Assembly (NCBI GenBank): GCA_949482135.1
Contig: CASYFC010000010.1
Coordinates: forward strand, 4,264 to 68,263
Direction of reading: 5' to 3'
From: an uncultured Clostridia bacterium
GTDB lineage: Bacteria > Bacillota > Clostridia > TANB77 > CAG-508
DNA: 64,000 nt
Shown piece by piece: positions 15,273 to 59,910 of this stretch. The position numbers were made by a program, and so were the translations under genes. The notes beneath the pieces were generated by a model that was not told where the DNA came from, made no database searches, and was given only the letters and a program-made list of their open reading frames with translations. Every line of letters starts with the position of its first letter. The first letter of the stretch is position 1.

Positions 15273-16502
15273 ATGAAAAAAATAGAATTATTAGCACCAG
15301 CAGGGTCATTTGAAAAAGCAAAAATCGCATTTATGTATGGAGCAGATGCTGTATACTGTGGAACTCCAAAATTATCATTACGTTCAAGATCAGAAATACA
15401 AGATAATGATTTAGAAAAAACAATAAATTATGCGCACAGTATAGGAAAAAGAGTACATGTTGCAATAAATATTTTTGCATGGGACGAAACATATGAAGAA
15501 ATAAAGCTACAGGCAGCAGAGCTAAATAGGTTAAAGGTTGATGCAATTATTGTTGCTGATGGCGGGGTTGTTGATATAATTAGAGAATATGCTCCAGACA
15601 CAGAAATACATATAAGTACTCAAGCAAATACTGTAAGTTATCATACTTGTAAATTCTGGCAAAGAAATGGTGCTAAAAGAATTATTTTAGGTAGAGAATT
15701 AAATAAACAGCAAATAAGAGATATTATGAAAAATAAACCAGAAGGCCTAGATATAGAGATGTTTGGGCATGGAGCATTATGCTTTGGATATTCTGGAAGA
15801 TGTTTCTTAAGTGAATTTTTGGCACAAAGAAATGGTAATTTAGGGGATTGTGCTCAAAGCTGTAGATGGGCATATAATGTTTATGTTGAAGAAACTAATA
15901 ATCCAGGAAACTTAATGCCAGTGGAAACTGATGAAAAAGGTACATACATATTTTCTTCCAAAGATTTATGCTTAATAAAAGAAATTCCAGATATTATAGA
16001 TATGGGAGTAGATAGTTTAAAAATTGAAGGAAGATTAAAAACAGAATATTATGTCGCAACAGTTGTAAATGCCTATAGAAATGCAATAGATGACTACATG
16101 AAAGATCCAGAACATTATGATGCAGAAAAATATTTAGTAGAATTAGAAAAAACCAAAACAAGAGGTCTTACAACATTTTTCTTTAATGATAGAAATAATA
16201 AAGATTTTCAAGATTATTCTGGACGTCAATACAATAGTGATTATGAATTTGGTGGAAAAGTAATAGAAGAAAAAGATGATAAAGTATTAATAGAAATAAG
16301 AAATAAGTTAAGTATTGGAGACACTTTAGAATTAATAATTCCAGGTGAAATAAAACCGTTAGTATTTAATATAGACAAACTATGGGATGCAGATACAATA
16401 GAAGAAATTACAACAGTAAATCCAGGAGTAAAAGAGCAGAAAGTAATATTAAAAATTCCTGCAAAAGTGAAAGAAGGTTGGATTATAAGAAGAAAAAAAT
16501 AG
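15273..16502 (+). CDS. U32-family protein (TrhP-like, probable tRNA hydroxylation)
   Basis: ELLAPAGS, HISTQAN, HGALC..YSGRC..N.G.CAQSCRW, SLKIEGR. Confidence 0.92.
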   Translation: MKKIELLAPAGSFEKAKIAFMYGADAVYCGTPKLSLRSRSEIQDNDLEKTINYAHSIGKRVHVAINIFAWDETYEEIKLQAAELNRLKVDAIIVADGGVVDIIREYAPDTEIHISTQANTVSYHTCKFWQRNGAKRIILGRELNKQQIRDIMKNKPEGLDIEMFGHGALCFGYSGRCFLSEFLAQRNGNLGDCAQSCRWAYNVYVEETNNPGNLMPVETDEKGTYIFSSKDLCLIKEIPDIIDMGVDSLKIEGRLKTEYYVATVVNAYRNAIDDYMKDPEHYDAEKYLVELEKTKTRGLTTFFFNDRNNKDFQDYSGRQYNSDYEFGGKVIEEKDDKVLIEIRNKLSIGDTLELIIPGEIKPLVFNIDKLWDADTIEEITTVNPGVKEQKVILKIPAKVKEGWIIRRKK

Positions 16503-21572: not shown

Positions 21573-22601
21573 TCATAATAGTTCATTTAATTCTAATATT
21601 AATTTTTCTGTTTTTTCCCAACCTAAACAAGGATCTGTAATTGATTTTCCATATATTTTATCTTGTATAGTGCAAGTACCATCTTCAATATAGCTTTCTA
21701 TCATAAGGCCTTTAACAATTTTTTTTATGTCATTTGATTTATTTCTACTATTTAAAACTTCTTTTGAAATTCTAATTTGTTCTTCATATTTTTTACCAGA
21801 ATTAGAATGATTTGTATCTATAATTACAGATGGATGAATTAAACCCTTTTTTACATATTTATCATTTAAAGAAACTAAATCTTCATAGTGATAATTAGGT
21901 AATGCTTTTCCTTGATTATTTACATATCCTCTTAAAATAGCATGAGCATATTCATTTCCAGAAGTTTGAACTTCCCAGCCTCTATAAATAAATTTATGAG
22001 AACTTTGGGCAGCCATAATAGAATTTAGCATTACAGAAATATCTCCACTTGTTGGATTTTTCATACCAGCAGGCATATCAAATCCACTTGCTGTCATTCT
22101 ATGATGTTGATCTTCAACAGATCTTGCTCCTATAGCAATATAAGATAGAATATCTGAAAGATATTCATAATTTTCTGGGTATAACATTTCATCAGCACAA
22201 GTTAAACCTGTTTCTTTTACAACATTAATATGTAATTTTCTTATAGCCTCTAAGCCATTTTTCATATCCTCTTTTCCTAATACATCTGGTTGATGAAGCA
22301 TACCTTTATATCCAGTACCAGTTGTTCTAGGTTTATTTGTATAAACTCTAGGAATAATAAAAATTTTATCTGAAACTTTTTCTTGGATTTTGGCAAGTCT
22401 TTTTATATAATCTAAAACACTTTCTTCACAATCAGCTGAACAAGGACCAATTATTAATAAAAATTTATTTGATTTTCCTGATAGTATATTTTTTATTTCT
22501 AAATCTCTTTTTTCTTTTAAGATTTTCATATTTTCAGTTACAGGATATTTCTTTTTTATTTCTTCTGGTGATGATAATTTTTCAATATAATTTATTCCCA
22601 T
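21573..22601 (-). CDS. aroF: DAHP synthase, class I-alpha
   Basis: IGPCSA, RVYTNKPRTTG.GYKG, GARSVE, MKNPTSG, DTNHSNS, SITDPCLGW; ATG 22601 after GAGGAGG. Confidence 0.95.
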   Translation of the reverse strand: MGINYIEKLSSPEEIKKKYPVTENMKILKEKRDLEIKNILSGKSNKFLLIIGPCSADCEESVLDYIKRLAKIQEKVSDKIFIIPRVYTNKPRTTGTGYKGMLHQPDVLGKEDMKNGLEAIRKLHINVVKETGLTCADEMLYPENYEYLSDILSYIAIGARSVEDQHHRMTASGFDMPAGMKNPTSGDISVMLNSIMAAQSSHKFIYRGWEVQTSGNEYAHAILRGYVNNQGKALPNYHYEDLVSLNDKYVKKGLIHPSVIIDTNHSNSGKKYEEQIRISKEVLNSRNKSNDIKKIVKGLMIESYIEDGTCTIQDKIYGKSITDPCLGWEKTEKLILELNELL

Positions 22602-22621
22602 TTTTTCCTCCTCAAATTTAT

Positions 22622-22658
22622 AAAACAAAAAACCTTACTTAAGCTAATAAGTAAGGTT
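22622..22658 (-). terminator. Attenuator terminator in the aroF leader
   Basis: Minus strand AACCTTACTTA-TTAGCT-TAAGTAAGGTT-TTTTGTTTT just before aroF RBS. Confidence 0.85.
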
Positions 22659-22696
22659 CTAATTTTATTATATTTTTATTTACGTAAAATATAAAA

Positions 22697-22804
22697 TTAT
22701 AACAACTTACTAATAGCTTTTTCCATACAAAAATAAGCATAGAAACCAAAAAAGGCTACGCTGTAAAAGTTATATGAAAATACGCTATTAATTGAGTGTT
22801 TCAT
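22697..22804 (-). CDS. Phe/Tyr-rich leader peptide (35 aa) of aroF attenuator
   Basis: MKHSINSVFSYNFYSVAFFGFYAYFCMEKAISKLL: 6 Phe and 4 Tyr in residues 9-25; AAGGA RBS. Confidence 0.8.
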   Translation of the reverse strand: MKHSINSVFSYNFYSVAFFGFYAYFCMEKAISKLL

Positions 22805-22832
22805 TTTTTCTTTTCCTTTACAATTTTTTACT

Positions 22833-22861
22833 AATATACAATATTTTTTATTTCTTGTCAA
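22833..22861 (-). promoter_or_regulatory. Promoter of leader-aroF transcript
   Basis: TTGACA-17-TATATT on minus strand. Confidence 0.7.
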
Positions 22862-22954
22862 TAAAAAAATTTTTATAGGAAACAATTAGTATTGTATAAG
22901 TTCTTAAAATATTGTATAATAACAAAGTAGCCAAATTTATTATCATATAATTAT

Positions 22955-23308
22955 GGGGGTGTATTTGGTTTCGACAGTATTCTAGAAGGATAAATAGCGA
23001 GTAGTGGAGATGCCTGGCCACTTAAAAAGGCATAAATTAAAAATAAACGCTGATAATAAAGAATTAGCATTCGCTGCCTAATTGTGGCGACGTCTTACTT
23101 TTGAAACCCACGGCTTAAGATAAGGCGACGATTAGTGGGAAACGAAGCTAATAATTGTTTTCGTTATTAGTGGGATATTTTGAAAACTACTTTAAATAAA
23201 CTTTGTTTGTTTGGGATATTTAGAGGAAATTTTAATAACAAACTGCACTCGGAGAAGTTTATTTTGAAGGGATTCTGGACAGGAGTTCGATTCTCCTCAC
23301 CTCCACCA
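22955..23308 (+). ncRNA. ssrA: tmRNA; tag reading frame ADNKELAFAA* at 23049-23081
   Basis: 5' GGGGGTG..TTCGAC; 3' GGAGTTCGATTCTCC-CACCTCCACCA tRNA-like end; promoter at 22892-22920; terminator 23311-23343. Confidence 0.97.
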
Positions 23309-23373
23309 TAAAAGACACAAAACAATAAGTTTTGTGTCTTTTACTATATTTTAGAAAAATAAAAAAATATATA

Positions 23374-23430
23374 TTGACAAAATTGGATTACAATTGTAAA
23401 CTTGTTATATGAAGATTACAGTTGTAATCT
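23374..23430 (+). promoter_or_regulatory. Promoter with two BlaI/MecI/CopY-type operators
   Basis: TTGACA-17-TAAACT overlapping TACAATTGTA (23389-98) and AGATTACAGTTGTAATCT (23413-30), both matching TACA-NN-TGTA. Confidence 0.85.
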
Positions 23431-23466
23431 AGTTTGCTTTATAGTTGAAAATTAAAAGGAGGAAAT

Positions 23467-23844
23467 ATGAAAGATAAATATGATATAACAAATGCAGAAT
23501 TAGAAATAATGCAAATTCTTTGGGATAACGGTGCTTGTGGTTTAACAGAAGTTTTATTAGAACTAGACAAAACTAAAAAAAGAAATAAGAATACAGTAAA
23601 AACACTTATTTATAGATTAGTAGATAAAGGTTCAATAGTTTCTCAAAAGAATAGTATGCAAGATGCTGTATATCTTCCAACAATAAATGAGAGAGATTAT
23701 TTAGCTAAAGCTAATAAATCTTTTCTAAATAATATATATAAGGGAAATATAAAAAAATTATTATTAAATTTTGTGGAAGATGAAACAGTTTCTAAAGAAG
23801 AATTACAAAATTTAGTTAATTTATTAGAGAGTGAGGAAGAATAA
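23467..23844 (+). CDS. BlaI/MecI/CopY family repressor
   Basis: AELEIMQILW, NTVKTLIYRLVDKG, FLNNIYKG..LLLNF. Confidence 0.93.
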   Translation: MKDKYDITNAELEIMQILWDNGACGLTEVLLELDKTKKRNKNTVKTLIYRLVDKGSIVSQKNSMQDAVYLPTINERDYLAKANKSFLNNIYKGNIKKLLLNFVEDETVSKEELQNLVNLLESEEE

Positions 23845-23846
23845 TT

Positions 23847-25889
23847 ATGTTTTTAGAAATGTTGTCCCAAATAGATTTCTTATCGCCAATATTTTATCAA
23901 GTATTGTATATGACAGTAATTGGAAGTATTGTAGGAATTATCGTTTACTGTATAAGAAATATTTTTGATAAGAAAATATCTGGAAAATGGAAATGCATAA
24001 TGTGGTGTATTGTTTTAGCTGTACTTCTAATTCCTGTTAGATTTGAAATAAAAACTAATAAAACATCAATAATAAATAATCAAATTATAAATAGCGCAGA
24101 AGGAATAAAAAATATTGCAAATTATGAAAATATTCAAAATGAATTAAATGAAAAGCAAAATCCAATGCCAATAAAAATAGAAAATGATAATGAAACTTTA
24201 GAAAAAGATATTCCTCAAATTTCAGACTTGGTAAAAGAAATAGATATAAAAACTATATTTGTTAATATAATAATTCCATATATCTGGTTATTAGGTACTT
24301 GTGTTTTTGTAGTAGTATTTTTCAGTGGAATTTTAAAAATAAATAGTAGAATTTCTAAAAACATATATAAAGATGAACGTTTAGAACTTATATTAGAAGA
24401 GTGTAAAAGAGAATTAAATATTAATAAAAAAGTGAAAATAATTTTTCAAAAATATAAAAGAGTTCCTAGTATTTATGGAATATTTAAACCATCAATATTA
24501 ATAACAGAAAAAACATTAGAAGAAGATGATGAGAGTATTAAATATATTTTCTTACACGAATTAGCTCATTATAAGAGAAAAGATACAATATTTAATTTTA
24601 TTTTATTATGTATATTATCAATTCATTGGTTTAACCCAATCATATGGTTTTTATTTAATAAAATTAGACAAGATATAGAAATTGGTGCAGATGAACTTGC
24701 ATCCCAAAAATTAGATAAAAATCAAAAAAAAGAATATGGAATGGTTTTAATAAATTTACTAAAAAGTAGACAAGAAGAGAGTTATACAGCAAATATGCTT
24801 TGTATGTCAGATACAGCTAAAAATATGGAAAGACGTATAGTTATGATGAAAGGAAAAAAGAAAAATGTTATTTTTAGTTTTATATTATTTAGTGTAATTG
24901 CTGTATTTATTGGAAGAGTTGTATTTATTAAGTTTGTATCTAAAGAAAATAGTACATATAAAGAACCAGAAAATGTAAAAATTCAAACTGAAACAAAAAT
25001 GGAAAATGTAAAAACAAAAAATTTAAAAATAACAGGAGGAAGTGGATTTTCAGACGGACTTGCATGGGTCTCATTAGAAAGATTAGAAGGAGTTTATATA
25101 GATAAACAAGGAAACATTATTTCAATACCATATGCAATAGGAATGGATTTTTCTGATGAATTAACATTAATTCACAAAAGCAGTGCTTATGGATTTGCGG
25201 ATAAAAATGGAAATATAGTTGTAGATTATATATATGAAAATGCGTATCCTTTTTCTTCTGGACTTGCTCAAGTAAAAAAAGGTGGAAAATGGGGATATAT
25301 AGATACAAAAGGAAATGTAGTTATAGATTTTACCTTAGAAGAAAGTCAGGTAGATTATTTTTTTGAAGGATTAAAGATAGTATATGATAGTGAAACAAAC
25401 AAATGTGGTTGCATTGATATGGAAGGAAATATAGTTATAGATTATATATATGATAATATGGGATATTTTTCAGAAGGACTATGTTGTGTAGAAAAAGACG
25501 GAAAAATTGGATATATAGATATCCAAGGAAATATTGCAGTAGATTTTAAATTTGTTCCTTTAGATGGAGGAAATTATGGATTTTCAGATGGACTTGCATT
25601 AGTATATGACGGTACAAAAGAAGTTTTTATAGATACTCAAGGAAATGTTGTTTTAATTCCACAATATGTTGTGTGTAGTAATTTTAGCGAAGATTTGTGC
25701 ATAGTTAAAAAAGTTGATGGCGAAGAACATAAATATGGATTTATGGATAAACAAGGAAATATAGTATTAGATTTTCAATATAATGCAGTACATAGTATAT
25801 TTTCAGAAGGTGTAGCTTTAGTAGAAAAAGACGGAAAATGTGCATTTATAGATCATAATGGAAATGAAGTAATAGGAAGTTTTGATTAA
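23847..25889 (+). CDS. BlaR1-like M56 metallopeptidase with C-terminal WG-repeat sensor
   Basis: HELAHYKRKD, HWFNP, ADE; TM segment then ~6 repeats FSxGLA.V....KxGYID.xG. Confidence 0.92.
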   Translation: MFLEMLSQIDFLSPIFYQVLYMTVIGSIVGIIVYCIRNIFDKKISGKWKCIMWCIVLAVLLIPVRFEIKTNKTSIINNQIINSAEGIKNIANYENIQNELNEKQNPMPIKIENDNETLEKDIPQISDLVKEIDIKTIFVNIIIPYIWLLGTCVFVVVFFSGILKINSRISKNIYKDERLELILEECKRELNINKKVKIIFQKYKRVPSIYGIFKPSILITEKTLEEDDESIKYIFLHELAHYKRKDTIFNFILLCILSIHWFNPIIWFLFNKIRQDIEIGADELASQKLDKNQKKEYGMVLINLLKSRQEESYTANMLCMSDTAKNMERRIVMMKGKKKNVIFSFILFSVIAVFIGRVVFIKFVSKENSTYKEPENVKIQTETKMENVKTKNLKITGGSGFSDGLAWVSLERLEGVYIDKQGNIISIPYAIGMDFSDELTLIHKSSAYGFADKNGNIVVDYIYENAYPFSSGLAQVKKGGKWGYIDTKGNVVIDFTLEESQVDYFFEGLKIVYDSETNKCGCIDMEGNIVIDYIYDNMGYFSEGLCCVEKDGKIGYIDIQGNIAVDFKFVPLDGGNYGFSDGLALVYDGTKEVFIDTQGNVVLIPQYVVCSNFSEDLCIVKKVDGEEHKYGFMDKQGNIVLDFQYNAVHSIFSEGVALVEKDGKCAFIDHNGNEVIGSFD

Positions 25890-36776: not shown

Positions 36777-36859
36777 GCGGATGTGGCGGAACTGGCAGAC
36801 GCGCTAGACTTAGGATCTAGTGGGAGACCGTGGGGGTTCAAGTCCTCTCATCCGCACCA
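36777..36859 (+). tRNA. tRNA-Leu (anticodon TAG)
   Basis: GCGGATG/CATCCGC acceptor stem, CTAGA-CTTAGGA-TCTAG anticodon arm, long variable arm, TTCAA T-loop, encoded CCA. Confidence 0.97.
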
Positions 36860-37466: not shown

Positions 37467-38402
37467 TTACAGCCTTTTTAATCTTTCTTTTGAAAAATCA
37501 AATAATAAACTAACATACTCGAAAGTTTTATCAATATAATCTCTTAATGTTAAAACTTCTTTTTTCAATTTTTCGTTTTCTTGCTTTAAAGTATAATTTT
37601 CTTCTTGTACCTGTTCAGTTTTATACATTGTTTCTTCAACAATATTCTTAATTCTAGTATATCTTTTGGCAAGAGTATTAAACTTGTTTATTATTCTTTT
37701 ATAATCATTTCTTATAACATCAATATTATCGGTTATTTTCTCTTGTTCTAAACTGTTTGTATCTTTAAACATTTCTTGCATTTCAAAATTAGTAATCTTT
37801 TTTAATTTTTCTATTGGTATATGCTCATTATTTTTGGCATTTCCTCGTTCTAAATCAAAACCATTTTCAGTTACATATTTATAAAATCTATCTTGCAAAA
37901 TTCTATAACTTTCTTTACCTTTCCAAAACTCACTACAAGCTATTTTATTTATTTCTTTTCCTTTTTTATTTGTTGTATGAACTACTGGTATAAATACAAT
38001 ATGAAGATGTGGGGTAGTTTCGTCATTATGGACTTTTGCAGATACTATAAATTCTTCTCCTAAATTATTGTAATTAACAACAAAGTCATAAGCTAACTTG
38101 AAATATCGTTTTGTTTCTTGCTCTCCAATTCTTTCAAAAAAATCTTTGTCAGATGTAATAATCAATTCACACATTACATTACTAACTTTCTTTATTTGAC
38201 CTTTTAATTTGTATTTTTCTTTTATAAGATTAAAGGCTTTTTGATAGGATGTATTTATAGTTTTAAGAGAATAGTTTTTAATAGAATTACTTTTATTTAT
38301 ATCTTTATTAGAATAGTTAGTATTTTTTCTTTCATTGTGCCTATAAATATATGGTAGTTGTCCCATTTTATAGTTTTCATTTCTTATTATTGCATAACTC
38401 AC
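37467..38402 (-). CDS. MOBV (Mob/Pre) relaxase
   Basis: MSYAIIR, HNER, N.DI, HNDETTPHLH HUH motif, C-terminal coiled coil. Confidence 0.93.
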   Translation of the reverse strand: MSYAIIRNENYKMGQLPYIYRHNERKNTNYSNKDINKSNSIKNYSLKTINTSYQKAFNLIKEKYKLKGQIKKVSNVMCELIITSDKDFFERIGEQETKRYFKLAYDFVVNYNNLGEEFIVSAKVHNDETTPHLHIVFIPVVHTTNKKGKEINKIACSEFWKGKESYRILQDRFYKYVTENGFDLERGNAKNNEHIPIEKLKKITNFEMQEMFKDTNSLEQEKITDNIDVIRNDYKRIINKFNTLAKRYTRIKNIVEETMYKTEQVQEENYTLKQENEKLKKEVLTLRDYIDKTFEYVSLLFDFSKERLKRL

Positions 38403-38755: not shown

Positions 38756-39022
38756 TTATCTTTCGTGTTCTGCATAAAAGTTAGTATTTTTTCCTTTGCA
38801 AATTCCGTCTATATATGCTTCAACTTCGTTCCAAGTTTTAAAGCAATGCTTATCGTCAACAGAGTACCAGTCTTTATTGCTATATTTTTTATCTACAATA
38901 GCAACAGCTTTATTATATGTATAGTCATTAGAGATTTTTAAAAGTAATAATTTCTTGTCGCTATTTTCTAGCATATATTCATTTAAGCCGTTAATTCTTT
39001 TTTGTATATCTATTTTGCTCAT
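38756..39022 (-). CDS. Hypothetical protein (element)
   Basis: 88-aa ORF overlapping integrase stop (ATGA). Confidence 0.65.
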   Translation of the reverse strand: MSKIDIQKRINGLNEYMLENSDKKLLLLKISNDYTYNKAVAIVDKKYSNKDWYSVDDKHCFKTWNEVEAYIDGICKGKNTNFYAEHER

Positions 39023-40377
39023 CTTTCAATTTCTCCTTTTTCAATTTTTTCTTCAATTTGATTTAATTCTTTCTCTAATTCGTCTAAAAATTTCGTGTAT
39101 GAATTATATTCTTCAATAGGAATAGACCACATTTCAGCCCAATCTTCTATTGATTTTCTTAAATTTAACATTATCTCATTACTATCTTCAATACCAGTAA
39201 TTTCAGGTAAAATTTTTTGGCTATTTGGGTTGATAATATCGTTATTCATATAGTAATCATTAACTTTTTCTAATTCACTTTCTTTATACTTATTGAAAAC
39301 AGAAGTATAGGTATTTAATGTAACAGATACATCAGTATGTCCCATAAGTCTTTGAAGTGCAACGGCTCGCATACCAGCCTCAACACATCTTGTGCCGTAT
39401 GTATGTCTTAAGCTATGAGAACTTATATTTTCTATACCTAGTCTTTTTAATAAGGCTTTTAATTTATCATTAGCAGTAGTTGGTCTAACATAATTGCCGT
39501 TAGTATCTAAAAATAATTGCTTATCTTTATTGTTTTCAGCTAATTTCATTTGATTTATTATGTCATTTCTTATAAATGAGGGAATAGGTACTTCTCTAAT
39601 TCCTGCATAAGTCTTTGTTGCTTTTCCCATTATAACTTTATTGTCTTTATCTCGTGTTAAAGTCTTATTTACTAATAATAAATTTTTTTGTAAGTTTATA
39701 TCTGTACTTTTTAAAGCTAATACTTCACCAATACGCAAGCCTAAATACATTTGTATTAAATAAGCTACTTTATAAGGCTCTTGTGAAATGGGAATACTTG
39801 TTAGATAATCTGTTAATGCTTGTTGTTCTTCAATTTCTAATGCTCTAACAACTTTCTTGTCTTTTGTACTTTTTGGCTTTACAACATCACACATAGGGTT
39901 TCTAAAAAGATACCCTCTATTTACAGCAAGTTCAAAGGCTTGTGAGAATTGTTCTGCTATTTTTTTTATTGTAGAAGTACTGTAATCTTTTAAAGCATTA
40001 AAGTAATTTTGAATATCATTGCTTGTTATATCTATAATGTTTTCTCTTGTTACAGGTGCTTTTTCAATTTGTTTAATAGTTTTTAATATACGACCATAAG
40101 TTCTTTCACCAATTAAATTTAATTCTAATTTTTTATCAGCATTTTCCCTCATAAGTTGGTTTAGAGGGATACCATTATTTTTTATAAATAAATTATTTCC
40201 TTTTTGAAATTGAATACTTGTTAAAAAATCTTGTGCTTCTTTTTCTGTTGGAAAAGATTTAGTTTTTCTAATTTCTTGTCCGCTAGTAATTTCATAAGCA
40301 TAATATATACATCTCCAATTTTTCCTTGTATTATCAAAATAAATGCTTCCAGTTTTTATTTTTTTATCTTTTTCTAT
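39019..40377 (-). CDS. Tyrosine recombinase/integrase (start uncertain: ATA 40377 or TTG 40413)
   Basis: GLRIGE, K, HSLRHTY, LMGH, TLNTY catalytic residues; N-terminal arm-binding-like region. Confidence 0.95.
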   Translation of the reverse strand: MEKDKKIKTGSIYFDNTRKNWRCIYYAYEITSGQEIRKTKSFPTEKEAQDFLTSIQFQKGNNLFIKNNGIPLNQLMRENADKKLELNLIGERTYGRILKTIKQIEKAPVTRENIIDITSNDIQNYFNALKDYSTSTIKKIAEQFSQAFELAVNRGYLFRNPMCDVVKPKSTKDKKVVRALEIEEQQALTDYLTSIPISQEPYKVAYLIQMYLGLRIGEVLALKSTDINLQKNLLLVNKTLTRDKDNKVIMGKATKTYAGIREVPIPSFIRNDIINQMKLAENNKDKQLFLDTNGNYVRPTTANDKLKALLKRLGIENISSHSLRHTYGTRCVEAGMRAVALQRLMGHTDVSVTLNTYTSVFNKYKESELEKVNDYYMNNDIINPNSQKILPEITGIEDSNEIMLNLRKSIEDWAEMWSIPIEEYNSYTKFLDELEKELNQIEEKIEKGEIER

Positions 40378-40388
40378 AATAAATACCT

Positions 40389-40694
40389 CTAAACACGCTT
40401 GCTCATTTTCCAAATAAGATAGGAAAGAAGCATTACTTGATTAGATTTGCCAATATTTATTGAGGGAAAATCATTTCTTTTAAATGTTCTATAAGCTATT
40501 GTTTCACAAATATTCAAATCTCGCATAATATCTTTTACACTTAACATTTTAAAAGGGTTTTTTATTCTTTTTATACTTTGTATAGCCATAAGTTGTTCAG
40601 GGGTTAATGGTGCTGATAAATTTATATTTATTTTCTTTTCTTCTGTATCAATTTCATTTGCAACTTTCGTTGATATATTATCTATTTCGTTCAT
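40389..40694 (-). CDS. Excisionase-like HTH protein
   Basis: MLSVKDIMRDLNICETIAY..F..DFPSINIG; directly upstream of integrase. Confidence 0.75.
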   Translation of the reverse strand: MNEIDNISTKVANEIDTEEKKININLSAPLTPEQLMAIQSIKRIKNPFKMLSVKDIMRDLNICETIAYRTFKRNDFPSINIGKSNQVMLLSYLIWKMSKRV

Positions 40695-44891: not shown

Positions 44892-47800
44892 ATGGGAGTT
44901 AATTTAGATGGACTTGAAAACGTTCCAAGAGAAGAAAGACAAGTTTTAAGCCAAGAAAAATTTTATGAATATATAAAATCTGTAGAAAGAACTTATTCAG
45001 AATCTATAAATTATTATATAATTTCAGAAGCTATACGAAGAGGTAAAGCAAATTTTGAAAGTATTTATCAAGAATATGTTATAAGTACAAAAGAAGAGTT
45101 AGCAGAAATTCTTGAAAAAGAAGTTGGCTTTAACATTTTAACTTATGATTTAAAAGAATTAATAAAAAATGTACCAGAAGAAATAATTAGTCAAATAGGT
45201 GATTTAGATTCTATAATTGATAGCATCCATGATTATGATGATTATGAAAAAATATCTGATGAAATAGATTTTTCTAATGTAGATGAACTATTTACAAAAA
45301 GATTAATAGATATTGCTACTGAAGTTAGTAAATGTGATTTAAGTCAAATTACTCAAGAATCTTATGCTAGAGCTAAATTTTTAAGATATATTAACTTTCA
45401 AAATACAGGAGCTAAATTAGATTTTGAATATATAAAACAAAATAGAGAAGATTATAAAATATATATAAGTTCTGAAAATTTGAAAGGAACAGAATTAATT
45501 TCATTTGATATTGATTTATATAATAGAACAGAAGAGGAAACTCCAAAGGAAGAATGGCCTTCTTTTATAAAAACTATTCAATTAAATCCCGAGAATTTTG
45601 ATGTATCTCAATATCAAACTGTAATAGATAGCTATAATATTGCAAATAAATGGATTAATAATGAAGTAGGATTATTTTTAGTAAATCAAGAATTACAAAA
45701 AAATAGTAAATGGTTAATAGATTATGCATTTGCCAATATAAAACAAGGTATATTTTTAGCAGAAAATATATGGAGTCAATTAACAAAAGAATCTCAAATT
45801 GAAAATAAAAATTGTTTTAAAAGTATACTAGATTATATTAAAGATTCTGAAAATACATACTTGTGGTCATCAGTATTTAAAACTACTGCTCCTGAGATTA
45901 TGGATGAAAATTCAGAAGATATAAATAAAATATTTACAAATGATGAAGGTATTTTACAGGATTCTTTTTTCTATGTAGCTTTTCCATATTTTAGTAATAA
46001 TTATAAAGAGCAGATGTATAAAGATAGTGAGGATTTGCCTTTTGAAAAAAGAGCTTTAATTTTATCAAAAACAAATCCACAATATATTAATGATAATTTT
46101 ATAGAGTTATTTGATGGACTAATAAATAGTCCGGAAACAAATGTTGGAAGATTTTTTTATACAAATAAATTAATGCAACATTTTACATCTCATGAATTTG
46201 ATGTAGCTAATATGGAACATTTTATGGAGGTTATCAAAGAAGCTTCTATAAATAGTGAATATGATTATTCAACAGCAATAAGTAATATATTTGCTTATTT
46301 AAATTGTAAAAATCAAATAGATTATTATAAAAAAATTATGCAAATAGGAATAGATAATAATATACCTGAGAAAAATATTGCACGCGTTTTCGAAAGTATG
46401 GATTCTCATGTTAAAGAAGAAAACTTTATTGATATATTAGAATTTTCACAAACACTTTCACCTAAGATTGCTCATTATATAAGAGGTTCTGGATATATAA
46501 GAATGGTTCAGAATATGCCAGATAAAAAAAGAGCAGAATTTATAGAGAAAAATTATAAAGATATATTGTTGTCTTTAAGGACTAAATTTACAGATTCAGA
46601 AGTTGGTTTTGAAGATACACTTTCATCATATGAAAGAGAAAAATTTGATAGTAATTATTCAGGAAAATTTGTAGCTATTCTTCTGGCAATGGACAAAAAA
46701 GGAGAGTTAAATTCTGATAATATTAATATAGTTATAGATAATTTGCCAAAACTTGGTGAAGATACTATTAGTAGATTATATAACTCTAATTCAGATATGA
46801 TAAGAGCAAATTCAAGTCAATTAATAACATCAGTATCAGCTTTAGGTAGAGAAGATGCAATTGCATTAATAGAAGATACGGAAAGATTATTTTCAAAAGA
46901 TACAATTCCTGATTTTGTAAAGTTGTATAAATTTTATGAAAACGTTGTAGAGAGGCAAAAACATGTTTTAAGTAATGCAATAAATAAAAAAGAGAATTAT
47001 TCTCCAGAACTACAACAAGCTGGTTCGGAAGAAGCTGGTAAAAGGATTATATTTTCTGATTTATTAAATATTTCTTTAAAATCTAATAATAAGTCTTTAA
47101 AAAAATTTATAGGTTTATTAGAAAAAGGAAATGAAATATATGTTAAATACTTAAATAATGGTAAAGATTTAAGTTCATTAACTGATGAAGAAAAAGATAC
47201 TTTAAGAAAATATTCAGAAACTTTATATACTATTTATGATGAATCTTTAGTTTCAAAATATGATAAAAAAGATCCTAGAAGAAGGATTAAAAATTCTAAA
47301 GATTATATGAAGACATTAGAGGATTTAACTAAAAGATATATAGGTAACGCATTCCCAAAAGATTTATCTAATGAAGTAATAAAAACTGTAATAGGCAGAT
47401 ATGATGAATTAATTGCAGGAAGAAGAACAATTGAAGATTTTAAAAAGTATATGAGAGATGTTAATATAGAATCTAATAAACGTCATGCAAGACTAGAAAA
47501 AACAAAATTAACATTAGAGCCAGGAGATTTAATCAAAGGTGTCCAAAATGCAAACAATTTCTTACAAGATTTATTTTCAAATGGTATTAGAGCTGGAGAA
47601 TTTTTAGGAACAGATACTCATACAGATGCTACACCTCTTGATTCTGATCATTCTATAATATTACCAAATAATGTAGGAGAATCTTTAAGAGATACAATAT
47701 CTAGAACTTCTTCAAACCTTTATGGATCTTTTTATTTAGTAATAAAAAAAGATGAACAAAAGATTAAATATACAAGAAACGACCCCGAATATACTTTTAA

Positions 47801-49217
47801 ATCAGAAAAAGCACCTGAATATCAAAGTAAACTTGGAAAAAATGCTGATAGAGAAGCTATCAAAGCAAGAATTAATAATAGAATTAATGGGTCTTTTGAA
47901 GAACCGAAACTTGAGGCGTTTTCAAGTTATGTAACTGGAATTGATCACTATGGTATAAGAACTGGCATGTCTATTACAGATGTTGATTATATAGTGGTAT
48001 CTAATTATGATAAACGCATAGGATATGAACTTGCTATGAATGGTACATTTATTCCAGTGGTAGATATGTCAACTAACGAGGTTGTTTTTGGAACTCAAGA
48101 TTATAAAAAAATAAGAGAGCAAATGCAAGGTTTATCTTATTTTGGAACAAAAAGATTTGAAGTTGAACAATCAGCATATAATTTACAAGTAGAAAAGAAA
48201 GTGGAGCAATTGTTTCCAGATGGTGATGTTAGAGAATCTATTAGTGAAAAAGATGCTAGAGTGAAAAGAGAAATTATTGAAAGAAAAGTACGTGAATCAA
48301 TACTAGAAAAATTAGGATTAGGATTTGAAAGTAAAATTACAGGAGATATTACTCCAGGATTTATAGAATTTATAGATACAGGCTCAACAGGAAGAGGAAC
48401 TAACCTTCCAGGTGATGGAGATTTTGATTTTTCAGTAAAAATTGATAAATCAATATTTGATAATTCTAAGAAAATGGATGAATTTAGAAGAGTATTAAAA
48501 GATGTACTTGCTATTCCTTCAAATCATGAAGAATGTAAATTAGATGAATTTAATGGTAATTTTAGATATAAAAAAGTACAAATTGAAGGGGCTCCAATAC
48601 CACTAGATATTGATATTACATTTATGCAAAAAAGTGAGGATGTTACATATTCAACAGATATGGCTGTAAAAGATAGACTACAAGGGCTTAAACAAAATGA
48701 TCCAGAAGGGTATAAAAGAGTAATTGCTAATATTGTTATTGCTAAAGAAATGCTAAAAAAAGAAGGTATTTATAAGAAAAAGTCATCAGATGGAGCTACT
48801 CTAGAAGGTGGATTTGGTGGTGTAGGAGTTGAAAATTGGATTTTACAAAATGGAGGATCTTTTGTAAAAGCAATGCAAACATTTTTAGATGCCTCAGAAA
48901 AGGCAGAAAGTTTTAATGAATTTATGGATATATATCCAATATTTGACTTCGGACAAAATCATATGGCAAAGGGATATCAACATGATAGTTTTATAAAAGG
49001 TTTATCTGAATTTGGATATAAAAAAATGCAAGAAAAATTTAAAGAATTTATAGAAGAATTAGCTCCAAATCAAGTTCAAGAAATTACTATGAAAGATTTG
49101 GCACGAAATGCATTAAAACAAGGAATAAGAACAGAAGAATTTAATGAAGCATATAGAAGTATCGCTCAAGAAGAATTGCAATTAGATACAGATAAAGATT
49201 TTATAGGAGGAGAATAA
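44892..49217 (+). CDS. 1441-aa multidomain protein: helical repeats, possible ART-like domain, Pol-beta-superfamily nucleotidyltransferase
   Basis: DTGSTGRGTNLPGDGDFDF, LDIDITF, AKEMLKKEGIY..GGFGGVGVENWILQNGGSF. Confidence 0.8.
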   Translation: MGVNLDGLENVPREERQVLSQEKFYEYIKSVERTYSESINYYIISEAIRRGKANFESIYQEYVISTKEELAEILEKEVGFNILTYDLKELIKNVPEEIISQIGDLDSIIDSIHDYDDYEKISDEIDFSNVDELFTKRLIDIATEVSKCDLSQITQESYARAKFLRYINFQNTGAKLDFEYIKQNREDYKIYISSENLKGTELISFDIDLYNRTEEETPKEEWPSFIKTIQLNPENFDVSQYQTVIDSYNIANKWINNEVGLFLVNQELQKNSKWLIDYAFANIKQGIFLAENIWSQLTKESQIENKNCFKSILDYIKDSENTYLWSSVFKTTAPEIMDENSEDINKIFTNDEGILQDSFFYVAFPYFSNNYKEQMYKDSEDLPFEKRALILSKTNPQYINDNFIELFDGLINSPETNVGRFFYTNKLMQHFTSHEFDVANMEHFMEVIKEASINSEYDYSTAISNIFAYLNCKNQIDYYKKIMQIGIDNNIPEKNIARVFESMDSHVKEENFIDILEFSQTLSPKIAHYIRGSGYIRMVQNMPDKKRAEFIEKNYKDILLSLRTKFTDSEVGFEDTLSSYEREKFDSNYSGKFVAILLAMDKKGELNSDNINIVIDNLPKLGEDTISRLYNSNSDMIRANSSQLITSVSALGREDAIALIEDTERLFSKDTIPDFVKLYKFYENVVERQKHVLSNAINKKENYSPELQQAGSEEAGKRIIFSDLLNISLKSNNKSLKKFIGLLEKGNEIYVKYLNNGKDLSSLTDEEKDTLRKYSETLYTIYDESLVSKYDKKDPRRRIKNSKDYMKTLEDLTKRYIGNAFPKDLSNEVIKTVIGRYDELIAGRRTIEDFKKYMRDVNIESNKRHARLEKTKLTLEPGDLIKGVQNANNFLQDLFSNGIRAGEFLGTDTHTDATPLDSDHSIILPNNVGESLRDTISRTSSNLYGSFYLVIKKDEQKIKYTRNDPEYTFKSEKAPEYQSKLGKNADREAIKARINNRINGSFEEPKLEAFSSYVTGIDHYGIRTGMSITDVDYIVVSNYDKRIGYELAMNGTFIPVVDMSTNEVVFGTQDYKKIREQMQGLSYFGTKRFEVEQSAYNLQVEKKVEQLFPDGDVRESISEKDARVKREIIERKVRESILEKLGLGFESKITGDITPGFIEFIDTGSTGRGTNLPGDGDFDFSVKIDKSIFDNSKKMDEFRRVLKDVLAIPSNHEECKLDEFNGNFRYKKVQIEGAPIPLDIDITFMQKSEDVTYSTDMAVKDRLQGLKQNDPEGYKRVIANIVIAKEMLKKEGIYKKKSSDGATLEGGFGGVGVENWILQNGGSFVKAMQTFLDASEKAESFNEFMDIYPIFDFGQNHMAKGYQHDSFIKGLSEFGYKKMQEKFKEFIEELAPNQVQEITMKDLARNALKQGIRTEEFNEAYRSIAQEELQLDTDKDFIGGE

Positions 49218-53138: not shown

Positions 53139-56100
53139 ATGAATTATAATATTGATAAGAATTTAGAAATGGATCAAATATTACAATTAACAGGAAATAT
53201 ATGTAATAGAGCAGATATCATATATAGAAATTATTCAAAAATGAAAGACTCTATTTCAAATTATGTTCAAAATAATGATACCAAAAATGTACAAAATATT
53301 TTGGAAACAATAGATGAAACAATGTTTATTGTAAAAAAGATGAAAAAATATGGTAATGAAATACTTACATCAATTAATACTGATGTAAGTAAAAATGATG
53401 TAATTTATCAAAAAATTGATTTATATAATAATTTCTTAAATAAAAATGAAAATCGTATACTATCAAATAGTTCTTTTATAAAAAGTATGATAGACAATAA
53501 CAATCAATTAGTTCAAAATACAGAATTAGTAAAATTTACTAAAAAAATAAAAGTAAAAACTGATGAAACAATAAAGCCAAAAGTGAATTTGCAATCTATA
53601 GTTGCAGAAAACGAATTAAATGCAGAAAATAATGTTGAGTATTCAGACTTATCAAGAAATATATCAATTTCTGAAGATGATAATCATTTTGAAGAAACTT
53701 ATCAAGAAAGCTATGAAGTTGAAAAGAAAAATAATCGCCAAATAGAAATTCAATTTAAGAAAAGTAAAAAAAATGAAGCAATAGAAAGCAAAATTTTAGT
53801 TAAAGATAAGGAAGAATTAATAGAAGAAAATCAAATATTAAGTGATTCAAATAAAGCGTTATTTGAAGAAAATGAAACTTTATTTAGTGAAAACGAGAGA
53901 CTTCTTAAAGAAAATGAAAAGCTTTCAAAAAGTAAAGAAAAAGTATTAAAAGAAAGACAAGTCTTAACAAGTAAAAATAGCGAATTGTCTAAAGATAAAG
54001 AAGAACTACAAAATGAAAAAGAAAAATTAGAAAATGAATATAATAAATTACTAACTCAAAATAAAGAATTACTTATTCAAAAAGAAGATTTATTCAAATT
54101 AAATAAATTATTAACAAAAGAAGTTCAAGAATTTGAATTGCCTTATAAAAACAAAATAGAGAAAATGGAAAAAGAATATGATAATGTAATTAGTGCAAAA
54201 AATAAATTGGAACAAAGTTGTGAATTATTAAAAAATGACACAGATAAATATAAAGATTTGAATGAATTACAAAAAAATGAAATAGATGATTTAATACAAG
54301 AAAAAAATGAATTATTAAATGATAAAAAAATACTAATAACTGAAATAGAAACATTAGAAGAAGAAATTGAAAATCTGAATAATGATAAATTAGAAGTTAT
54401 AAATGGAAATAAATTGTTAGAAGATAATAATGAGAAAATATTATTAGAAAATCAGGAATTAAAAAACGAAAATGAAAAGATAAATAGTGCTTATGATGTA
54501 TTAGCAGGAGAAAAAGAAGAAGTAGTAAATAAAAATGAAAATCTAAAAAAAGAAATAGAAGATTTAAATATTAATAAATTGGAATTGGAAAACAATAATA
54601 ATTTACTTGAACAGGAAAAAGAAAATTTAATATTAGAAAATCAAGAATTGAAAGTTACTATTGAAAATAAAGATACTGAGTATAATAAATTAGTAGAACA
54701 AAAAGAAGAATTAAATAGTGCATATAATGAGTTAGCTGAACAAAAAGAAGAATTAAGTAGTGCATATAATGAATTAATTGGAGAAAAAGAAGAATTAGAT
54801 ATTGCATACAATAAATTTGCAGAAGAAAAAACAGAATTAAAAAATGAAATCAAAACTTTACATAATAACAACTTAGAATTTTCAATTGCTAATAAATTAT
54901 TGAAACAAGAAAAAGAAGAACTAAATAATCAAAATGAAGAATTAAAACAAGATATAGAAAATTTATTATTAGAAACTCAAGATTTGAAAGGAATTATTGA
55001 AAATAAAGATACTGAGTATAATAAATTAGTAGAACAAAAAGAAAATCTAAATACTACATATAATGAATTAGTACTAAAAAATGAAGAGATGAATGCTATA
55101 TATAATGAATTAGTAGTACAAAAAGAAGAATTAAAACAAGAAAATGAAAGTCTATTATCAGAGAATCAAAACTTTAAAGATGCTATTAAAAGCAAAGAAA
55201 TTGAGTATGATAAATTATTAGAACAAAAAGAATGTTTAAATACTTCATATGATGAATTGGCAAGTCAAAAGAAAGAATTAACAACGATATATAATAAAAT
55301 ATTAAAACAAAAAGAAAAACTAACAAATGAAAAAGAGGAGTTAAAAAAAGAACTTAAAGATTTAAAAAATAACAATTTAGAATTTGTAAATATTAATAAA
55401 GTATTAGAGCAAGAAAAAGAAAAACTATTAGTAGAAATTCAAGAAATAAAAGAAACATCAGAAAAGAAAAATACTGAATATAATGAACTATCAGAACAAA
55501 AAGAAAATTTAAATACTATATACAATGATTTAGTAGAACAAAATAAAAAATTAAACATTACATATAATGAATTAGTAGAAAAAAAAGAAGGATTAAATAT
55601 TGTTTATAATACGTTAGTGGTTCAGAAAGAAAAATTAAATGATGCATATAATACACTAGTAGTACAGAAGGAAAAATTAAATGGTGCATATAATACATTA
55701 GTAGTACAGAAGGAAGAATTAAATAATGCATATAATACACTAGTAGAAGAGAAAAAAGAACTAAATAATGGATATAATACACTAGTAGAAGAGAAAGAAG
55801 AACTAAATAATGCATATAATACACTAGTAGAAGAGAAAGAAGAATTAAATAATAATTATAATAAAATATTAAAACAAAATGAAAAGTTAACAAATGAGAA
55901 AAAAGAATTAAAAAAAGAAATTAAAGAATTAAATAATAATAATTTAGAATCTATAAATGCAAAAAAAATATCAGAACAAGAAAAAGATGAACTAATAAAA
56001 TCATATAAAGCTCTAGAAGAAGTTTATCAAAATAAATTAACAGAATTGGAGATAAAGTATAATAAAATTATTACAGAGAAAGATAAAGTTGAAAAACCTG

Positions 56101-56531
56101 AAAAGAAGGTGCATTCAAGTAATACTATAAATAAATATAGTACAGAACTTAAGGATAATAATGTATTATTAATTTCTAGAAAAGATGGAATGGTTTATTT
56201 ACCATACAATATTCAAGAGATTATAGATTATAAAAAATATAATAAAGTAGATTTAAGCATAGAAGAAATAATAGATGAAAAATATATTATTCCAATTAGA
56301 TACTATAAAAATAAACAAAAAGCTAGATATGCAGAAACATATGATTTAATGAGAAATAAATCTAGAGAAAGTATTGCAAATTCTATAAAAACAGCTTATG
56401 AAATTTCTCAAAATGAAAAGATACATCCAGCTATAATAACTGCTTGTAAGAATAAAGATGAATTAGATACATATATTCTGTGCTTACAAAATAATAGTAA
56501 GTTTAAAATCTTTGATATAAAATACGAATAA
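53139..56531 (+). CDS. Long coiled-coil protein with 14-aa tandem repeats and globular C-terminal domain
   Basis: Heptad-rich E/K/N/L body; (Q/E)KEELNNAYNTLVx repeats. Confidence 0.85.
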   Translation: MNYNIDKNLEMDQILQLTGNICNRADIIYRNYSKMKDSISNYVQNNDTKNVQNILETIDETMFIVKKMKKYGNEILTSINTDVSKNDVIYQKIDLYNNFLNKNENRILSNSSFIKSMIDNNNQLVQNTELVKFTKKIKVKTDETIKPKVNLQSIVAENELNAENNVEYSDLSRNISISEDDNHFEETYQESYEVEKKNNRQIEIQFKKSKKNEAIESKILVKDKEELIEENQILSDSNKALFEENETLFSENERLLKENEKLSKSKEKVLKERQVLTSKNSELSKDKEELQNEKEKLENEYNKLLTQNKELLIQKEDLFKLNKLLTKEVQEFELPYKNKIEKMEKEYDNVISAKNKLEQSCELLKNDTDKYKDLNELQKNEIDDLIQEKNELLNDKKILITEIETLEEEIENLNNDKLEVINGNKLLEDNNEKILLENQELKNENEKINSAYDVLAGEKEEVVNKNENLKKEIEDLNINKLELENNNNLLEQEKENLILENQELKVTIENKDTEYNKLVEQKEELNSAYNELAEQKEELSSAYNELIGEKEELDIAYNKFAEEKTELKNEIKTLHNNNLEFSIANKLLKQEKEELNNQNEELKQDIENLLLETQDLKGIIENKDTEYNKLVEQKENLNTTYNELVLKNEEMNAIYNELVVQKEELKQENESLLSENQNFKDAIKSKEIEYDKLLEQKECLNTSYDELASQKKELTTIYNKILKQKEKLTNEKEELKKELKDLKNNNLEFVNINKVLEQEKEKLLVEIQEIKETSEKKNTEYNELSEQKENLNTIYNDLVEQNKKLNITYNELVEKKEGLNIVYNTLVVQKEKLNDAYNTLVVQKEKLNGAYNTLVVQKEELNNAYNTLVEEKKELNNGYNTLVEEKEELNNAYNTLVEEKEELNNNYNKILKQNEKLTNEKKELKKEIKELNNNNLESINAKKISEQEKDELIKSYKALEEVYQNKLTELEIKYNKIITEKDKVEKPEKKVHSSNTINKYSTELKDNNVLLISRKDGMVYLPYNIQEIIDYKKYNKVDLSIEEIIDEKYIIPIRYYKNKQKARYAETYDLMRNKSRESIANSIKTAYEISQNEKIHPAIITACKNKDELDTYILCLQNNSKFKIFDIKYE
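55605..55870 (+). repeat. 42-bp coding tandem repeat (~6 units)
   Basis: TATAATA starts at 55605, 55647, 55689, 55731, 55773, 55815, 55857. Confidence 0.9.
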
Positions 56532-59502: not shown

Positions 59503-59649
59503 TTTTTTGTTTTTTGGTTAGCTGGATTTATTAAATTAGGCTTATAAAAAGAGAAAAGTGGGGAAGGCGAATGCCTTCTCCACTTTTTATACAAATTGTA
59601 TTGACAAATTTATGTAAAGGATGTTATTATAATAATTATCAATAACTAA

Positions 59650-59910
59650 AAACTTTGAAAAGGACACGGTAAATAAAAGTAAAACCTTAAGAGAGCAAAC
59701 AATTTGGTGAAATGTTTGTAGGAAAATAGTTTATTTATTATCACCTTGGAGTTGATTATTTGAACATATTATATTATTAAAATAATCCGCATTGCTTTGC
59801 GTTAAAAAGAAAAGAGAATTGTTAAAATAAGTTTTATCAATTAAATTTAGGTGGTACCACGGAAAGTAAGTCATTTCGTCCTATTGTTGGATGGAATGAC
59901 TTTTTTGTTT
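59650..59910 (+). promoter_or_regulatory. T-box riboswitch, Ile specifier
   Basis: AGAGAG and GGTGAA stem I motifs, ATC at 59740-42, AATTTAGGTGGTACCACGG T-box, terminator AAGTCATT..AATGACTTTTTT. Confidence 0.92.

Follow-up and report, generated by a model that had tools for sequence, protein, structure and literature searches.

In the 64-kb stretch of clostridial DNA analysed here (hereafter the window), the minus-strand gene aroF, which encodes a class I-alpha 3-deoxy-D-arabino-heptulosonate 7-phosphate (DAHP) synthase, is preceded by a leader that very probably acts as a ribosome-mediated (leader-peptide) transcription attenuator controlling the DAHP synthase gene, as judged from sequence comparison and folding models. 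The window belongs to a genome (G000) of 27% GC and 92% completeness. As shown in Table 1, a promoter, a ribosome-binding site (RBS), a leader open reading frame (ORF), a terminator hairpin with a U tract, the aroF RBS and aroF itself follow one another in this order. A first-pass annotation had described the promoter, the RBS, a 35-aa ORF with 10 Phe or Tyr codons (F/Y codons) among 17, the terminator and the aroF RBS, and all of these were confirmed base for base. Its assignment of the DNA to a firmicute was also right, given the SigK/SigE-type sporulation sigma factors encoded in G000 and the T-box present in the window.

The leader promoter matches the consensus at 11 of 12 positions. The leader peptide, MKHSINSVFSYNFYSVAFFGFYAYFCMEKAISKLL, had no match in Pfam, and its frame is part of a longer TTG-started ORF (22697-22885) in the ORF listing. 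A hairpin termed P1 was predicted across the F/Y codons; its outer arms are formed by AUUAAUAGC (22792-22784, codons 5-7) with GCUAUUAGU (22717-22709), UAUUUUCAUAU pairs with GUAUGGAAAA in its middle part, and its inner hairpin, AGCGUAGCC-U6-GG-UUUCUAUGCU, lies at 22762-22736. The stem of the terminator has a predicted energy of -13.8 kcal/mol, and the hairpin is followed by UUUUUUGUUUU, with the U tract at 22632-22622. The interval between the U tract and the aroF ATG is just 20 nt long, and no promoter-like site was seen in it; therefore, transcription of aroF must pass the terminator. The aroF product matches the class I-alpha DAHP synthase model NCBIfam NF009395 (364 bits; cut-off 343), as well as TIGR00034 aroFGH (281 bits; cut-off 173).

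Table 1. Features of the aroF leader in window coordinates (MFE, minimum free energy).
Feature	Positions	Strand	Details
Promoter of the leader transcript	22833..22861	-	-35 TTGACA (22861-22856), 17-nt spacer, -10 TATATT (22838-22833)
Leader RBS, AAAGGAAAAG	22810..22819	-	5-10 nt ahead of the ATG
Leader ORF	22697..22804	-	ATG at 22804, TAA stop at 22699-22697; 35 codons plus TAA
Proposed sensor, codons 9-25	22730..22780	-	6 Phe and 4 Tyr codons among 17
P1, putative anti-antiterminator or pause hairpin across the F/Y codons	22719..22792	-	MFE fold and RNAalifold consensus (12 sequences)
Region 2, predicted antiterminator 5' strand (AGCUAUUAGUAAGUU)	22704..22718	-	leader codons 29-34
Region 3, terminator 5' arm and loop (AACCUUACUUAUUAGCU)	22642..22658	-	predicted partner of region 2
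Intrinsic terminator	22622..22659	-	12-bp stem, 22659-22648 with 22641-22630; loop UUAGCU
aroF RBS and coding sequence	21573..22613	-	RBS GAGGAGG (22613-22607), ATG at 22601, stop ends at 21573; 342 aa

In the mechanism that we propose, transcription would begin at the conserved promoter and a ribosome would load on the 35-codon leader. With an ample supply of Phe-tRNA and Tyr-tRNA, the ribosome would reach the end of the ORF and cover region 2; region 3 would then pair with region 4, the terminator would form, and polymerase would stop at the U tract, 20 nt before aroF. Under scarcity of charged tRNA-Phe or tRNA-Tyr, the ribosome would stall within codons 9-25 and hold P1 open; region 2, being free, could then pair with region 3 while region 4 is still to be transcribed, and polymerase would read into aroF. 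If the leader were not translated, P1 would sequester region 2 and termination would be the default; P1 would be able to do this through its extension by the AUUAAUAGC:GCUAUUAGU pairing. The stalling, the kinetic competition, the pausing at P1 and the sensing of both amino acids are inferred.

Conservation of the leader was examined in a sample of 75 genomes of the genus. AroF was found in 22 of them and fell into two types, of 11 genomes each; the 11 genomes with the type present in the window, whose AroF proteins are 79-100% identical, are referred to as clade A. All 11 retain the promoter, the RBS, the ATG, the F/Y run, region 2 and the terminator. The -35 element TTGAC was retained in 10/10 sequences reaching that far, the -10 block TGTATAT was invariant in 11/11, and the GGA/AGG core of the RBS was found at the same distance in 11/11. 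When metagenomes were scanned with the conserved core, two contigs were recovered, both with leader, terminator and aroF, and the leader ORF was open and ATG-started in these two contigs as well as in the 11 genomes; both contigs hold the same element and thus added no diversity to the covariation analysis. The motif was located upstream of aroF in all of its 13 occurrences and was never found away from aroF. Moreover, an nhmmer profile of the clade-A leader, run over 188 loci, gave matches at clade-A aroF loci only.

The pattern of change within the leader was also informative. A 3-nt indel inside the F/Y run preserves the frame, aromatic positions interchange between species (NFY, NYF, YYF or YFF), and the peptide core VAFFGFYAYF is invariant across most of clade A. 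At one locus (L019), the loss of one nucleotide behind the F/Y run alters the C-terminal part of the peptide; at two others (L005 and L017), one additional nucleotide gives rise to UAA UAA immediately ahead of region 2 and cuts the leader to 27 codons. Despite the frameshift or early stop, the nucleotides of region 2 are unchanged at all three loci. Constraint thus acts on codons in the front part of the frame and on the RNA in its rear part, which is predicted for a leader peptide and not for a functional peptide.

RNA structures were then compared across clade A. For the terminator, 93.9% of cells were paired, seven cells had changed on both sides, and the covariation score was reached by none of 500 shuffles. 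RNAalifold, applied to 12 sequences, independently yielded the terminator and P1. For P1, 86.7% of cells were paired across the 11 clade-A sequences (compared with 37-52% when the partner was slid), with few covarying pairs. The first-pass annotation had claimed that the end of the leader ORF is complementary to the 5' arm and loop of the terminator, and this held: the duplex between regions 2 and 3 has an energy of -12.9 kcal/mol, compared with -6.2 +/- 2.2 kcal/mol for shuffled sequences, of which 0.3% were as good. As a fold, the pairing of regions 2 and 3 gave -14.8 kcal/mol, versus -13.8 kcal/mol for the terminator, and its core, AGUAAG:CUUACU, is invariant in all 11 sequences.

The predicted switch was modelled co-transcriptionally, with folding evaluated before the 3' arm of the terminator is made and with the ribosome masking 13 nt downstream of its A site. 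In the window, the 5' arm of the terminator was paired at 0.73 when the ribosome was placed at any F/Y codon, and at 0.05-0.25 when it was placed at codons 29-36; with no ribosome, the arm was still paired at 0.56. Eight of the 11 clade-A leaders switched in this model (0.67-0.90 at the F/Y codons versus 0.13-0.30 at the stop). The antiterminator logic proposed in the first-pass annotation is thus supported by the comparative evidence and by this simple model, with the proviso, discussed below, that the switch must be kinetic.

Leaders rich in F/Y codons were also found at aroF genes outside clade A. In the second aroF type of the genus (59-65% AroF identity), 5 of the 11 genomes carry a different, non-homologous leader, in which a TTG start 5-9 nt after a GGAG-type RBS opens an ORF with 11-13 F/Y codons, for example (M)KKANNYANFNYFFSSYNFFKVYSLFAYKFVFSE, followed by a terminator. 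Three complementary pairs are used in these second-type leaders, namely GUUUUUAGUGAGUA/GAUUCACUAAAAAA, UUUAAUGAGUA/AACUCAUUAAG and AGGUCUAUUUUGCAUAC/AUAUGUAAAGUAGAUUUC. Cognate duplexes between regions 2 and 3 averaged -13.0 kcal/mol, compared with -7.8 +/- 2.3 kcal/mol for 398 non-cognate pairs. When compared with shuffles, the duplex was among the best 5% in 8/11 clade-A leaders and 4/5 second-type leaders; for L005 and L017, the window used in the duplex test missed region 2, which is located after their early stop. In the co-transcriptional model, pairing of the 5' arm dropped in 3/5 second-type leaders.

A scan of genome contigs yielded 80 AroF loci. One of them (L029), from a close relative, carries the clade-A leader and was set apart, so that 79 from other Clostridia remained. 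Nine of the 79 (L034, L053, L071, L075, L077, L078, L092, L096 and L105) have a leader of a third kind together with a terminator, in hosts labelled Lachnospiraceae, Acutalibacteraceae, Faecousia or unclassified Clostridia. These leaders have 20-32 codons, as exemplified by MNVKYYFYYFFKKGCPFFVIG and MSANKFFYYFYYYSKGCPMIEFKR. Immediately after their F/Y run is a conserved GGGCUGCCCGU, which is complementary at 10/11 positions to ACGGACAGUCC, a segment that extends into the 5' arm of the terminator. The GC content upstream of these loci is 0.33-0.48, so AT bias cannot account for their F/Y codons. At L026, a locus of the second aroF type, a possible leader of the third kind was considered and rejected, because the apparent ORF consists of a repeat and the upstream gene's terminator.

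Across the 79 loci, small ORFs rich in F/Y (here at least 7 of 17 codons) were enriched in the 300 nt sense-upstream of aroF, with 8/199 compared with 37/5,592 elsewhere (odds ratio 6.3, one-sided Fisher p = 1.2e-4, in which relatives are not independent); the eight include L079 and L097. No homology among the three leader kinds was found by nhmmer. All 25 leaders of the three kinds hold at least three Phe and at least three Tyr codons and are followed by a terminator, their F+Y fraction is 0.25-0.43 (0.09 in the proteome), and Trp codons are absent from 23 of them. As a separate observation, a conserved ORF of about 40 codons ending in ...MMR(I/L/T)STERR..FDK lies directly upstream of aroF in many other metagenome-assembled genomes (MAGs) of Clostridia and Bacilli (L059, L068, L082, L083, L089, L101 and others, as well as L140, L142 and L143); this ORF is not F/Y-rich.

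G000 was also scanned genome-wide for the series RBS, small ORF, terminator and gene, and a leader of this type was found upstream of trpB, outside the window (contig C3; L011, 1501-1810). Its promoter, TTGACA-18-TATAAT, is 85% identical over 40 nt to that of the aroF leader. It is followed by an RBS, a 27-codon ORF, MNNFENIKLNNMWQVWAENRSYSFVVL, which contains MWQVW with two Trp codons, a terminator of -21 kcal/mol, and trpB. The leader ORF ends with CUCAUACA, to which the 5' arm of this terminator, UGUAUGAG, is complementary. TrpB matches were obtained in 18 of the 75 genomes, and the 17 loci with an intact 5' end were used; L186 (a 3' fragment) and L184 and L188 (3' halves of split genes) were excluded. 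At 17/17 of these loci, the leader contains (L/M/W)W(Q/N)VW and hence two or three Trp codons in five. These Trp codons are a strong signal because UGG is rare in such AT-rich DNA. Moreover, the amino acid of the leader tracks the product of the gene (F/Y at aroF, W at trpB), which is a hallmark of ribosome-mediated attenuation. The trpB element is therefore a second candidate leader-peptide attenuator, put forward from its sequence features. Apart from it, the scan of G000 revealed no other convincing leader-type attenuator, and the region ahead of pheA showed neither a leader nor a terminator. The start of trpB is overlapped by another small ORF rich in W/Y (MEGDWYWYNKK...).

Leader-peptide attenuation is textbook knowledge in proteobacteria and is known in actinobacteria, and in Firmicutes the control of amino-acid operons is generally attributed to T-boxes, TRAP and protein regulators, T-boxes and TRAP being the usual controls for aromatic amino acids. 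T-boxes and TRAP resemble the aroF leader in that a choice between terminator and antiterminator reports tRNA charging or the level of an amino acid. The aroF leader differs in having neither a specifier nor a T-box sequence, in its length of about 200 nt and in its translated ORF, and sensing would be performed by the ribosome, not by tRNA-RNA binding or a Trp-binding protein. No model of Rfam 15 (4,227 models) matched the aroF leader in a search of 22300-23500 at E <= 10, and no leader match was obtained at E <= 1 in 15 loci carrying all three leader kinds. The T-box model RF00230 did not match the aroF leader, and it found the ileS T-box of the window normally, with 100.7 bits. Because this T-box precedes ileS in the window, T-boxes and leader peptides coexist in the genome. 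It is located at 59646-59886 on the plus strand, about 550 nt upstream of ileS (60443-63223), and a 161-aa ORF that matches no NCBIfam family (59943-60425) lies between them.

The aroF leader is best assigned to the known class of leader-peptide attenuators and is not a new mechanism, although the mechanism is little documented in Clostridia. Like the aroF leader, pheL-pheA and trpL-trp of Escherichia coli are described as having a promoter, a translated leader with clustered cognate codons, 1:2, 2:3 and 3:4 hairpins, and a terminator before the gene (PMC11802643, PMC3082878). The host of the window, however, is one of the Clostridia, and there is no sequence relation to these systems in the form of an Rfam match. 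Unlike in these systems, the leader in the window encodes two amino acids (6 Phe and 4 Tyr over 17 codons), its proposed sensor codons lie inside the loop of the 1:2 hairpin and not in its 5' strand, and its target gene encodes the enzyme that opens the common pathway and not one of a terminal branch.

Closer in target is aroR-aroF of Corynebacterium glutamicum (Neshat et al. 2014, as cited in the review PMC11802643), in which a leader with Phe and Tyr codons likewise lies upstream of a DAHP synthase gene. There, a leader with Phe-Tyr-Phe precedes an operon that includes aroF, and ribosome stalling raises transcription; Phe limitation is reported to have been effective and Tyr limitation not. 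This system is likened to ours by description, not by sequence; it comes from an actinobacterium and has only three aromatic codons. Dual sensing of Phe and Tyr, as suggested in the first-pass annotation, may apply to the window leader, since all 25 leaders hold both types of codon, yet C. glutamicum is described as having responded to Phe limitation only (PMC11802643). Within the Firmicutes, published reports describe a His leader of hisS/hisZ in bacilli (PMC2965389), a Leu leader of leuA in streptococci (PMC5314783) and a Leu-rich attenuator peptide of ilv-leu in Staphylococcus aureus (PMC5794164). These share mechanism class and phylum with the aroF leader and concern other amino acids and genes; none of them involves aromatic amino acids or Clostridia.

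Another close precedent is uORFC-13-1 (Brewer et al. 2021, PMC8632094), an untested candidate with 24 representatives from Acholeplasma and unassigned environmental sequences. It is described as being found upstream of aroF only and comprises -35 and -10 elements, an RBS, a start codon and a U run coding for Phe, lies directly before a terminator and has one extra helix. The window leader is likewise located upstream of aroF, contains a small upstream ORF with a Phe-coding U run and lies directly before an intrinsic terminator, and the fit extends to the GCC-UUUUUU-GG hairpin loop. The family in the window is possibly the same as, or related to, uORFC-13-1, the two being compared by description only. 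If they were the same, the family would already have been published as an untested candidate, and its host range and the F/Y reading would be the addition. Neither an F/Y leader nor an attenuator-like terminator was found at 50 aroF loci in 201 genomes of the order of an Acholeplasmatales-labelled MAG, a set that may or may not include true Acholeplasma; ten terminators at those loci belong to upstream genes. A full-text literature search, with preprint supplements and PDFs outside its scope, returned no paper on such an aroF leader in Clostridia. The likeness to the enterobacterial pheA/trp logic drawn in the first-pass annotation therefore stands, but the design is less unusual than that annotation implied, given the Corynebacterium aroR-aroF system, the Acholeplasma uORFC-13-1 prediction and the His and Leu leaders of Firmicutes.

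The metabolic setting of the gene was examined by searching G000 for families of the shikimate pathway. No match was found in G000 to aroB, aroC, aroE, shikimate kinase (SKI) or chorismate mutase (CM_2), and aroA gave only a match below the cut-off (108 bits versus 287), which is taken to be MurA. Prephenate dehydratase, adjoined by an aminotransferase, and prephenate dehydrogenase are present. Another genome of the sample (G063, locus L166) carries a full operon, aroE-aroK-aroB-aroA-aroC-aroQ-aroF-chorismate mutase. When the proteins of this operon were compared with G000 by tblastn, only AroF (63%) and AroA (25%) gave matches, while those of the flanking genes were 75-91% identical. aroC was present in 4 of the 75 genomes and in none of the 11 clade-A genomes; in five further clade-A genomes, aroB was absent from all five and aroA gave only sub-cut-off matches. 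Gaps in a MAG might conceal a single operon from a single genome, but are hardly a credible cause across eleven of them. Broken aroA-like frames of 24-67 bits, in two or three pieces, were observed in three of these five genomes, at G057:C19:12727-13787, G084:C22:21660-22851 and G017:C91:2880-4071, those of G057 adjoining the aroF leader; these fragments may be remnants of a decayed aro operon. Prephenate dehydratase was found in 17 of the 22 aroF carriers versus 17 of the 53 other genomes. C54, H265, E302 and D323 are among the invariant columns of AroF and probably correspond to the metal ligands (Cys, His, Glu and Asp) of the E. coli enzyme.

From these sequence searches, the DAHP synthase seems to be intact yet orphaned, since the remaining shikimate genes are apparently missing from the genomes that bear the leader. 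The enzyme and its Phe/Tyr sensor are thus conserved in species seemingly incapable of processing DAHP along the known route. A broader proposition can be put forward only tentatively, and we hold it to be less probable than its negation: that Phe/Tyr leaders have recurred on class I-alpha DAHP synthase genes across Clostridia with at least three separate origins, paired in this genus with the Trp leader of trpB, and that in the lineage of the window the attenuator governs an orphan enzyme, kept together with its sensor under selection in 11 species that retain prephenate dehydratase and dehydrogenase and have lost aroB, aroC, aroE, aroK, chorismate mutase and a true aroA. A U32-family protein is also encoded in the window (15273-16499, plus strand), whose best NCBIfam match is TrhP, a prephenate-dependent tRNA U34 hydroxylase (358 bits; cut-off 534), a curious match in a genome seemingly unable to make prephenate.

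Several results weigh against the attenuator reading. At equilibrium, with the ribosome footprint masked, the full terminator had a probability of at least 0.75 at every position of the ribosome; therefore, the switch must be kinetic, as in trp. The crude co-transcriptional model showed no switch in L005, L017 and L019 of clade A, in 2/5 second-type leaders or in the nine leaders of the third kind, and in none of these nine did the duplex between regions 2 and 3 beat 95% of shuffles. The first-pass annotation had proposed that conserved F/Y codons and covariation be sought upstream of aroF orthologues; the conserved F/Y run and the covariation of the terminator were found, and covariation of the antiterminator in clade A was not (the observed values were reached by 120-150 of 500 shuffles), because the AGUAAG:CUUACU core never varies. 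No such leader was present in six of the 11 second-type genomes, in three of which the locus lies within an aro operon, or at 70 of the 79 loci elsewhere. Of 24 public sequencing runs identified, four were compared with the window, all in the form of assembled contigs; the two RNA runs among them covered only short pieces around the 3' end of the tmRNA and one 18-nt piece in aroF, and thus carry no information on transcription or termination in the leader. The apparent lack of the rest of the shikimate pathway also weighs here, since the induction of a DAHP synthase would then bring no obvious gain. Finally, when all ATG-started ORFs of 20-60 codons in G000 were taken as background, 29 of 7,497 (0.4%) had at least 10 F/Y codons in 17, and F/Y richness alone is thus weak evidence in a genome of 27% GC.

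This last point bears on one of the rival explanations, in which a TTT/TAT-rich frame came to lie beside a terminator by chance because the DNA is AT-rich. Promoter-like sites between 21400 and 23500 were indeed at the level of chance (16 observed, 15.8 expected), and F/Y richness alone is weak evidence, so the case rests on conservation and not on composition. Terminator-like sites in the same interval numbered 4, with 0.6 expected, and the folding energy of the 230-nt leader, -51.3 kcal/mol (z = -4.06), was equalled by none of 200 shuffles. The worry about an AT-bias artefact, voiced in the first-pass annotation, was therefore fair, but it is answered by comparison: the leader is conserved in 11/11 species, F/Y leaders recur in GC-richer Clostridia, the terminator covaries, and a matched Trp leader is present at trpB. 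AroF identities of 79-94% argue against near-identical strains as the source of this conservation. We consider the probability of a chance origin to be negligible.

Two other explanations were weighed. An RNA switch might be read by a trans-acting factor, such as an uncharged tRNA acting on a diverged T-box, a TRAP- or PyrR-type protein or a small ligand, with the ORF incidental. Nucleotide conservation within the ORF is very high, third positions included, which suggests constraint on the RNA, and P1, including its U6 loop, hardly varies; furthermore, diverged T-boxes can escape Rfam (PMC5314783), and uORFC-13-1 is also described as having an extra base-paired substructure of unknown role (PMC8632094). 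However, neither a T-box nor any other Rfam family was matched in the search that readily found the ileS T-box, the start codon, RBS and frame survive indels, and the trpB leader has W in place of F/Y, as codon sensing predicts. In addition, an F/Y-rich translated ORF, a terminator and an antiterminator are all that the three unrelated leader families have in common. Control by a trans-acting factor is accordingly improbable in our judgement. Slightly less probable still is that the ORF is a small gene in its own right, which encodes a hydrophobic peptide and has a separate terminator, aroF being expressed by constitutive leakage or from another promoter. The ORF does have its own promoter, RBS and terminator, its peptide core is invariant in most of clade A, and in four congeners the terminator and aroF are separated by a spacer of 60-100 nt that could hold a promoter. 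On the other hand, the short spacer of the window contains no promoter-like site, the C-terminus of the peptide varies across frameshifts whereas the RNA does not, the motif has no protein family match and always occurs upstream of aroF, and unrelated F/Y-rich peptides are encoded at the same place before aroF in other lineages. Attenuation by a translated leader thus remains the explanation that we strongly favour.

Other features of the window were also recorded. A tmRNA gene (22955-23308, plus strand; Rfam RF00023, 175 bits) is divergent from the aroF leader promoter. It is followed on the plus strand (23467-25889) by genes for a BlaI-type repressor (Penicillinase_R) and for a BlaR1-type M56 peptidase fused to WG beta-repeats. 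Between 36777 and 41259, a tRNA gene (36777-36856) and minus-strand genes for a MobV-family relaxase (37470-38402) and a tyrosine recombinase (39022-40413) constitute what looks like a small integrated mobilisable element. Two very long plus-strand ORFs, at 44892-49214 (1,441 aa) and 53139-56528 (1,130 aa), had no match in Pfam or NCBIfam.

Taken together, these data suggest that a genus of gut Clostridia uses ribosome-based sensing for two genes of aromatic metabolism, aroF (F/Y) and trpB (W), beside its T-boxes, which would widen the known range of leader-peptide attenuation. The three leader kinds would represent three new families of RNA and upstream ORF that were missed by annotation pipelines and by Rfam, and they may provide compact Phe/Tyr- and Trp-responsive parts for use in anaerobes. 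The apparent absence of the shikimate pathway from the genomes that bear the leader also raises a concrete metabolic question. If the broader proposition of a selected, orphan DAHP synthase were true, it would point to an unknown route from DAHP to Phe and Tyr, or to an exchange of intermediates with other gut microbes.

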